Sequence record: PQ571291
DNA: 50,066 bases
Source: Escherichia phage EF3-1
Direction: 5' to 3' (one strand)
Part shown: positions 3,019-3,653 of the stretch, in pieces
How positions within the stretch are numbered: position 1 is the first letter of the stretch
How the letters are laid out: each line of letters opens with the position of its first letter
Notes under the pieces: model-generated
Told to the model about the DNA's origin: nothing
The model's input: only the letters and a program-made list of their open reading frames with translations
Database searches by the model: none
Position numbers and translations under genes: made by a program

Positions 3019-3336
3019 ATGGCTAAATTTAATTTCGTTCTTGGTCAACTTCCAGACTTCAAACTTCCAGTCACCTTCACCATGCCTAACGGTGAAGATG
3101 CAACTATCATTTTCACTGTACGCCACCTTTCCAGTAAAGAAGTTCAGGATATGTATGCCAACCAGGGAGAAATGAACGACAGCGAGTTCATTACCAAGAT
3201 CGCGTCAGGATGGAACCTTGAAGAAGAATTTAACGAAGAAAATGCGCGAAAACTGGTTCAGTATTATCCTTCAGCAGCGTACAACCTGACAGCGACTTAC
3301 ATCAAGGCTCTCGCCGGACACCGCGCAAAAAACTAA
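3019..3336 (+). CDS. tail assembly chaperone (lambda G-like)
   Basis: 105-aa ORF directly upstream of tape measure gene; ends in slippery heptamer. Confidence 0.75.
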   Translation: MAKFNFVLGQLPDFKLPVTFTMPNGEDATIIFTVRHLSSKEVQDMYANQGEMNDSEFITKIASGWNLEEEFNEENARKLVQYYPSAAYNLTATYIKALAGHRAKN

Positions 3337-3653
3337 AAAAGGCGGTCTATCTGTTATATCAGAAGCCGCCAACAGAGGAACAATTGCGATCGGTTGGTTT
3401 AAGTCTTTCCGACTATGAAGACGAGGAACCTGAAACGATAATTGGCGACGCTGAAATGGTGAAGGCTTGGAATGTTTTTACATCAATGCTCACTCAGTGG
3501 AGAAGTTCAGGCGCTGGCGCTTACGGTCTTGATTATAATGTTTTGCCTATGTTGTTTAAAATCTATAAAATAGAGGATGAAGAACTGGCATTGCAGGACG
3601 TTAGGATCATGGAAGCGAAAGCGCTCGAAATGATTGCTAAGCAGAATAACTAA
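3019..3653 (+). CDS. tail assembly chaperone GT-like fusion made by programmed -1 frameshift
   Basis: -1 frame is open from 3327 to 3653 with no stop; slippery A_AAA_AAC at 3327-3333 just before the G stop. Confidence 0.65.
3327..3333 (+). other. -1 ribosomal frameshift slippery heptamer A_AAA_AAC
   Basis: X_XXY_YYZ pattern in zero frame (gca|aaa|aac|taa); possible stimulatory stem GGCGG(3341-3345)/CCGCC(3366-3370) downstream. Confidence 0.65.

Follow-up and report, generated by a model that had tools for sequence, protein, structure and literature searches.

A probable programmed -1 ribosomal frameshift in the tail assembly chaperone gene of the T1-like siphophage EF3-1

Background

Between the tail tube and tape measure genes of Escherichia phage EF3-1 lies a short open reading frame (ORF) that ends at position 3336, and the frame displaced from it by -1 stays open as far as position 3653. 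Does this downstream frame encode a protein of its own, or is it the distal part of a fusion that ribosomes reach by slipping back one base? The second arrangement is that of the lambda G/GT tail assembly chaperones, which were reportedly described by Levin, Hendrix and Casjens in 1993 and by Xu, Hendrix and Duda in 2004, 2013 and 2014. A sequence-only reading of the window (the whole 50,066-nt stretch of DNA that was analysed, in whose coordinates all positions are given here) had proposed a G/GT-like programmed -1 frameshift at this locus. That proposal is supported by the reading register, synteny, protein domains and conservation of the slip site, and we put the probability that the tail assembly chaperone gene of this T1-like siphophage is subject to a programmed -1 ribosomal frameshift at about 0.9.

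Results and discussion

Gene neighbourhood

With bases 2900-3800 as the megablast query, 68 phage records were matched, the closest at 98-99% identity, and the best of these are Tunavirus phages of E. coli and Shigella. On nucleotide similarity, the source phage is thus a Tunavirus (T1-like, Drexlerviridae) and belongs to a heavily sampled group. The genes and signals that frame the locus are the following.

2182-2904, + strand: major tail (tube) protein gene, by Pfam Phage_tail_3
3007-3011, + strand: Shine-Dalgarno AGGAG of the chaperone gene, read from the sequence, 7 nt before the ATG at 3019
3019-3336, + strand: G-like tail assembly chaperone in the zero frame (105 aa, 11.9 kDa), by ORF and PF08748; ortholog of T1 gp40
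3333-3653, + strand: -1 extension, a T-like segment of 106 sense codons plus stop, by frame, PF08809 and colinear fused alignment
3652-3678, + strand: terminator-like hairpin (3652-3671) with T-run, directly after the extension stop and before the tape measure gene
3693-6566, + strand: tape measure gene (957 aa), by Pfam TMP_2 and Tape_meas_lam_C

The order of Pfam domains along the strand, Phage_tail_3, Phage_TAC_4, DUF1799 and then TMP_2/Tape_meas_lam_C, places the chaperone pair between the tube and tape measure genes, which is the position of a G/GT pair. The sequence-only reading had described the frameshifted pair as the conserved arrangement of long-tailed phages and had taken it as backing for its tape measure assignment; the downstream gene does carry TMP_2 and Tape_meas_lam_C.

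Several further observations concern the neighbouring genes. The major tail ORF as called by program begins at GTG 2182 (240 aa); relatives annotate 669 nt (222 aa), which corresponds to a start at ATG 2236 (MHLPNGAQIF...), and in some records the protein is named "tail fiber". The terminator after T is annotated as rho-independent in T1, Solomon and Shelby, and a second terminator-like hairpin with a T-run follows the major tail gene at 2916-2935, so that the G/T unit is flanked on both sides. Such flanking terminators may govern how much tube protein, chaperone and tape measure protein is made relative to one another. In two Pseudomonas relatives, YMC11/02/R656 (1210-1414) and PS-1 (1058-1402), G/T is followed by a superinfection-immunity or partition-ATPase gene rather than directly by the tape measure gene, and in Dhillonvirus SO-1 (1060-1443) a 384-bp repeat region lies between T and the tape measure gene.

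Chaperone and extension proteins

The zero-frame product matches PF08748 (Phage_TAC_4) from end to end (E = 5.5e-37, 127.2 bits, gathering cut-off 21.1), and the extension matches PF08809 (DUF1799; E = 2.7e-12, 47.2 bits, gathering cut-off 26). When 3019-3333 is joined to 3333-3650, the predicted GT fusion has 211 aa and a mass of 24.1 kDa. Both parts also align to a single 213-position profile, phrog_17368, in which G covers positions 1-107 and the extension 109-212; because the profile spans both halves, some members of the family are represented as one polypeptide. Scanned in full with HMMER, a set of 1.84 billion representatives yielded 370 relatives of the extension, and a word-indexed protein search with the fused protein yielded one match, a 123-aa T fragment. 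A natural in-frame fusion, P0142 (206 aa), carries both Phage_TAC_4 and DUF1799; its source is an 811-bp metagenome contig with 2.6x coverage, and as it could be an assembly error we give it little weight. The PDB sequence search returned chance proteasome matches only (E about 0.09), no NCBIfam family was found, and nothing in Rfam came close to gathering scores over 3200-3720.

The slip site in EF3-1

Two features mark the end of the chaperone ORF.

3327-3333, + strand: slippery heptamer A_AAA_AAC in the X_XXY_YYZ register, read from the sequence; the sole in-register heptamer of the G ORF
3334-3336, + strand: zero-frame stop TAA, adjoining the heptamer; its first two bases lie within the -1-frame Leu codon CTA (3333-3335)

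The G ORF ends ...GHRAKN, with GCA (3325-3327), AAA (3328-3330), AAC (3331-3333) and TAA (3334-3336) as its final codons, and reading these codons confirmed both the C-terminus and the in-register heptamer that had been reported for it. The -1 frame is open over 3234-3650, has its stop at 3651-3653, and shares an overlap of 33 codons with G (3234-3333). The earlier statement that this frame extends to 3653 was correct, but the 107 codons given for it include the stop, there being 106 sense codons from 3333.

In the long ORFs of the source genome, in-register heptamers occur at a rate of 0.0031 per codon. The corresponding chance expectation is approximately 0.1 heptamer for the 33 codons of overlap and 0.003 for the last two codons of the ORF, an estimate that uses the heptamer rate only, as the lengths of -1 extensions are confounded by overlapping real genes. 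Within one genome alone, the placement of the heptamer is therefore suggestive.

A second heptamer, A_AAA_AAG, follows immediately at 3335-3341 and is in register in the -1 frame (CTA AAA AAG). This is the most shift-prone heptamer in E. coli, and ribosomes that had already shifted could slip a second time there and enter a frame whose stop lies at 3416; its stimulation is unlikely, because the hairpin described below begins at the last base of this heptamer. The site is polymorphic, with AAG (Lys) in the source phage and five other loci (L017-L020 and L022) and AGG (Arg) in T1 and most relatives.

Conservation across relatives

When the 211-aa fusion was used as a tblastn query, both halves were found adjacent to each other in 1154 phage records, and almost all of the rows listed show two pieces at each place; the records extend over Drexlerviridae, Dhillonvirus and phages of Pseudomonas and Ralstonia, the latter at about 30% identity. 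We then read the sequence before the stop in 46 related loci, which fall into four types.

A_AAA_AAC followed by TAA: 36 loci, in Tunavirinae, Tempevirinae, Braunvirinae, Dhillonvirus and Solomon
G_GGA_AAC followed by TGA or TAG: 2 loci, in Pseudomonas phages YMC11/02/R656 and PS-1
GCA_AAG_GTC_TAA: 6 loci, in Rogunavirinae
GCA_AAA_GTY_TAA: 2 loci, in Webervirus

A canonical heptamer adjoining the stop is accordingly present in 38 of the 46 loci. In the other eight, a slip on a Lys tetranucleotide (A_AAG or A_AAA) is the sole option, so tandem slippage cannot be the mechanism throughout the family.

When conceptual fusions from 18 diverse loci are aligned, no gap appears at the junction, where the pattern ALAG[HQ]R[AV]KN|LK[KR]AVYL.Y is conserved (the upright bar marks the frame change), and the first Leu of the -1 frame (CTA 3333-3335) is invariant in the alignment of relatives. 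As the alignment runs through the junction uninterrupted, conserved coding begins with the first codon of the -1 frame, before any start codon is reached. The placement of the heptamer, suggestive in one genome, becomes decisive once conservation across relatives is added.

Some of the records recovered are themselves unusual. In the Tunavirus-like locus L031 (IMGVR_UViG_2974611450, 1111-1650), indels break the G frame and add residues to T while AAAAAACTAA is kept; this contig is probably low-quality sequence. Records named Campylobacter phage A143, A110b and A144 and Streptococcus phage MBBL140 contain chaperone genes of the Drexlerviridae/Dhillonvirus type that are 37-61% identical, and these are likely to be enterobacterial phage contaminants or to have mis-assigned hosts.

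A hairpin downstream of the slip site

A possible stem between GGCGG (3341-3345) and CCGCC (3366-3370) had been pointed out in the sequence-only reading. It is present, and by folding it forms part of a larger, interrupted hairpin of 10 bp.

3341-3370, + strand: interrupted hairpin, candidate stimulator; outer stem 3341-3346/3365-3370, inner stem 3350-3353/3360-3363, loop 3354-3359

In a fold of 3337-3375, this hairpin has a stability of -15.5 kcal/mol (z = -5.0), which none of 200 shuffled sequences attained; on a 67-nt fold, z is -2.4. It is separated from the heptamer by a spacer of 7 nt, within the 5-9 nt of a canonical cassette for -1 programmed ribosomal frameshifting. The arms of the hairpin encode conserved Ala-Val and Pro-Pro. 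Among 500 synonymous recodings with the codon usage of the phage, only one was as stable as the native sequence (mean -5.2 versus -15.5 kcal/mol; z = -3.6), and similar results were obtained for T1, tunus, phSE-5, JLBYU41 and L032.

Tunavirinae and Tempevirinae share the hairpin and its 7-nt spacer. At that spacing, a hairpin with other arm sequences also occurs in Dhillonvirus SO-1 and in Pseudomonas phage YMC11 (recoding z about -3.4 each). The recoding test shows nothing of the kind in PS-1 (z = -1.0) or in two subfamilies of Drexlerviridae, Rogunavirinae (z = +2.2) and Braunvirinae (z = 0.2), and the downstream structure of Shelby is weak (z = -1.7). Pair counts for the source hairpin across 22 sequences were not significant, with 68% of cells paired versus 65% in shuffles, a value reached by 10 of 500. 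It is credible, on folding and recoding, that the hairpin is a selected stimulator in the lineage of the source phage; it is not a defining feature of the family.

The family thus presents three states: a canonical heptamer with a hairpin, a canonical heptamer without a hairpin, and a bare A_AAG without a hairpin.

Alternative explanations

The two frames might instead be independent genes, the downstream ORF starting at an internal TTG and giving a free protein of 89 aa and 10.1 kDa.

3384-3386, + strand: TTG, the first possible start in the -1 frame, most likely an internal Leu codon; used as the start of an 89-aa ORF by many GenBank records

Records LHE71 and Sfin-3 have a CDS annotated from this codon, many gene-caller ORFs of the extension family start near extension residues 7-9, and the run GAGGA at 3375-3379, with a 4-nt spacer to the TTG, leaves room for some independent initiation. 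However, the TTG is replaced by the synonymous Leu codon TTA in T1, tunus and IME167, the Shine-Dalgarno-like run is AGAAGAG in T1, and the 17 codons before 3384 (LKKAVYLLYQKPPTEEQ) are conserved as protein and are covered by phrog_17368. ATG, GTG and TTG are absent from the -1 frame over 3234-3383, and no start of its own is conserved: the first start codon of the frame is scattered among relatives over extension codons 4-67, being codon 17 in the source phage, 41 in T1, tunus and IME167, 50 in Webervirus, 67 in Dhillonvirus, and 22 or 4 in others. Gene-caller N-termini are found at query residues 1-52 among the best 150 of the 370 extension representatives, and this scatter is the signature of an ORF without a real start; T1 RefSeq calls just a 55-aa fragment, which again indicates that the annotated starts are arbitrary. 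As the start is not conserved and the codons upstream of it are, we rejected initiation at TTG 3384 and regard two independent genes as very improbable. A fusion made by normal translation could also arise if RNA polymerase slipped on the A6 run at 3327-3332, gaining or losing one A in some transcripts. Runs of six A are indeed present at 3327-3332 and 3335-3340; productive transcriptional slippage in bacteria, however, as a rule takes runs of at least about 8-9, which counts against this explanation. Relatives with G_GGA_AAC or GCA_AAG_GTC, moreover, keep the two-frame arrangement with no homopolymer run, and on that ground we rejected polymerase slippage, which is barely credible here.

A different question is how ribosomes would shift. 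A single P-site tRNA (tRNA-Lys on A_AAA or tRNA-Asn on A_AAC) might slip while the A site waits on a slow stop codon, with the same outcome, but with the abutting stop rather than the hairpin as the main stimulator. The stop lies directly 3' of the heptamer in all 38 loci with a canonical heptamer, whereas lambda has five codons between the two; the slip site is kept in lineages without the hairpin; and the eight loci with A_AAA_GTY or A_AAG_GTC leave a Lys tetranucleotide as the sole place to slip, -1 slips on Z_ZZN tetranucleotides, A_AAG among them, being established in bacteria (PMC5009743). Against this, the Lys codon of the A_AAG_GTC variants does not adjoin the stop, and the position of the stop may simply follow from its overlap with the invariant Leu codon (CTA/CTG), a case of dual coding. 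The sequence is compatible with tandem slippage and with a single P-site slip, and we think the single-tRNA route unlikely. The broader proposal that a termination-paused single-tRNA -1 slip is the conserved core of the signal, to which the hairpin adds a lineage-specific booster, is likewise doubtful and is offered tentatively; if it were true, these phages would form a natural series for the study of how frameshift efficiency is tuned.

Comparison with known systems

Programmed -1 frameshifting is thus our preferred reading, and the likeness to lambda is one of organisation. As in lambda, a pair of ORFs is placed between the genes for the major tail protein and the tape measure, the second ORF is in the -1 frame, a heptanucleotide slip site is found close to where the first ORF ends, the extension lacks a start of its own, and the sizes are of the same order. 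The heptamer is A_AAA_AAC in the source phage and G_GGA_AAG in lambda. In lambda, five more codons precede the TGA, so that G has a private C-terminal tail, whereas in the source phage the stop adjoins the heptamer and there is no such tail; lambda T and H overlap, whereas in the source phage a terminator-like hairpin stands between T and the tape measure gene.

At the level of the proteins, BLASTP found no detectable similarity between source G and lambda G (E = 2.6), and comparison of the T-family profile with lambda T by hhalign gave a probability of 1.2%, confined to a 14-residue GL[DT]Y[NT]VL motif. DUF1799 is most strongly conserved in the motif YGLDYNVLPMLF (extension residues 62-75, about 3516-3557), which resembles lambda T residues 54-67, SGLTYTVLSLFF; we treat this likeness as a lead for structural comparison and not as evidence of homology. 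The pair therefore appears to be an analog of lambda G/T by position and mechanism that is drawn from different protein families, and the sequence-level features by which Xu, Hendrix and Duda are said to recognise such pairs are all found here.

Closer to the source phage, the T1 (NC_005833) orthologs gp40 and gp39 have the same A_AAA_AAC with TAA and the same hairpin (GGCGGUU/AACCGCC) at a 7-nt spacer; T1 differs in having AGG (Arg) at 3339-3341 and TTA at 3384, against AAG (Lys) and TTG in the source phage. The T1-like Klebsiella phages Solomon (Webervirus; MT701592) and Shelby (MK931445) carry true homologs that are 44-46% identical over the fused protein, with the same gene order and a terminator after T. 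Solomon has A_AAA_AAC like the source phage, whereas Shelby has the non-canonical GCA_AAA_GTT_TAA, and the downstream structure of these phages is different from the source hairpin and weaker.

Frameshifting at such a site has been noted before. The announcement of Skenny, a T1-like Klebsiella phage, attributes to the tail chaperones of T1-like phages a frameshift comparable to that of lambda G/GT (PMC6763657). In Acinetobacter phage Loki, an AAAAAAC next to the stop was proposed as the slip site of the tail chaperones gp12/gp13 (PMC5313236), and A_AAA_AAC has been cited as the g-t shift site of the haloarchaeal virus HCTV-2 (PMC5009743); Loki and HCTV-2 belong to other phage groups and are likened to the source pair by the slip motif alone.

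A model for expression of the chaperones

We propose that most ribosomes would translate 3019-3333 and terminate at the UAA at 3334-3336, releasing the 105-aa chaperone, the presumed analog of lambda gpG. A minority would slip back by one base on A_AAA_AAC, with tRNA-Lys and tRNA-Asn re-pairing to AAA_AAA, read CUA (3333-3335) and go on to 3650, giving the 211-aa fusion whose C-terminal 106 residues, the DUF1799 domain, would be the analog of gpT. The hairpin at 3341-3370, and possibly the abutting stop too, would raise the frequency of slipping. In E. coli, A_AAA_AAC is far less shift-prone than A_AAA_AAG (PMC5009743), and it is therefore probable that the efficiency of slippage is low.

By analogy with lambda, the G part shared by both products may bind the tape measure protein and the T part may recruit the major tail protein, so that polymerisation of the tube would start around the tape measure. 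Both chaperones would then leave before the virion is completed; the mature lambda virion is without G and GT (review PMC5009743).

Annotation and significance

Frameshifts of this kind are already known, as is the phage group, and the value of recognising one in EF3-1 is mainly one of annotation; it opens no new question. The CPT records of Solomon and Shelby have a joined "frameshift product" annotated, whereas most Tunavirus records show two separate ORFs with arbitrary starts, and the 211-aa GT fusion is therefore missing from the corresponding proteomes. The T1 reference has gp40 (105 aa) and, as gp39, the 55-aa fragment (1468-1635 of the fetched T1 locus), with no slippage shown. In RefSeq and PHROG, moreover, the two chaperone ORFs both carry the name "tail length tape measure protein" (for example, in the Sfin-3 locus, 1619-2253).

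According to one preprint, the Avs17 defence protein senses the chaperone part that is common to both isoforms. Read correctly, the locus supports the assignments of the neighbouring tail tube and tape measure genes, and gives the right target for studies of tail assembly or of defence sensors.
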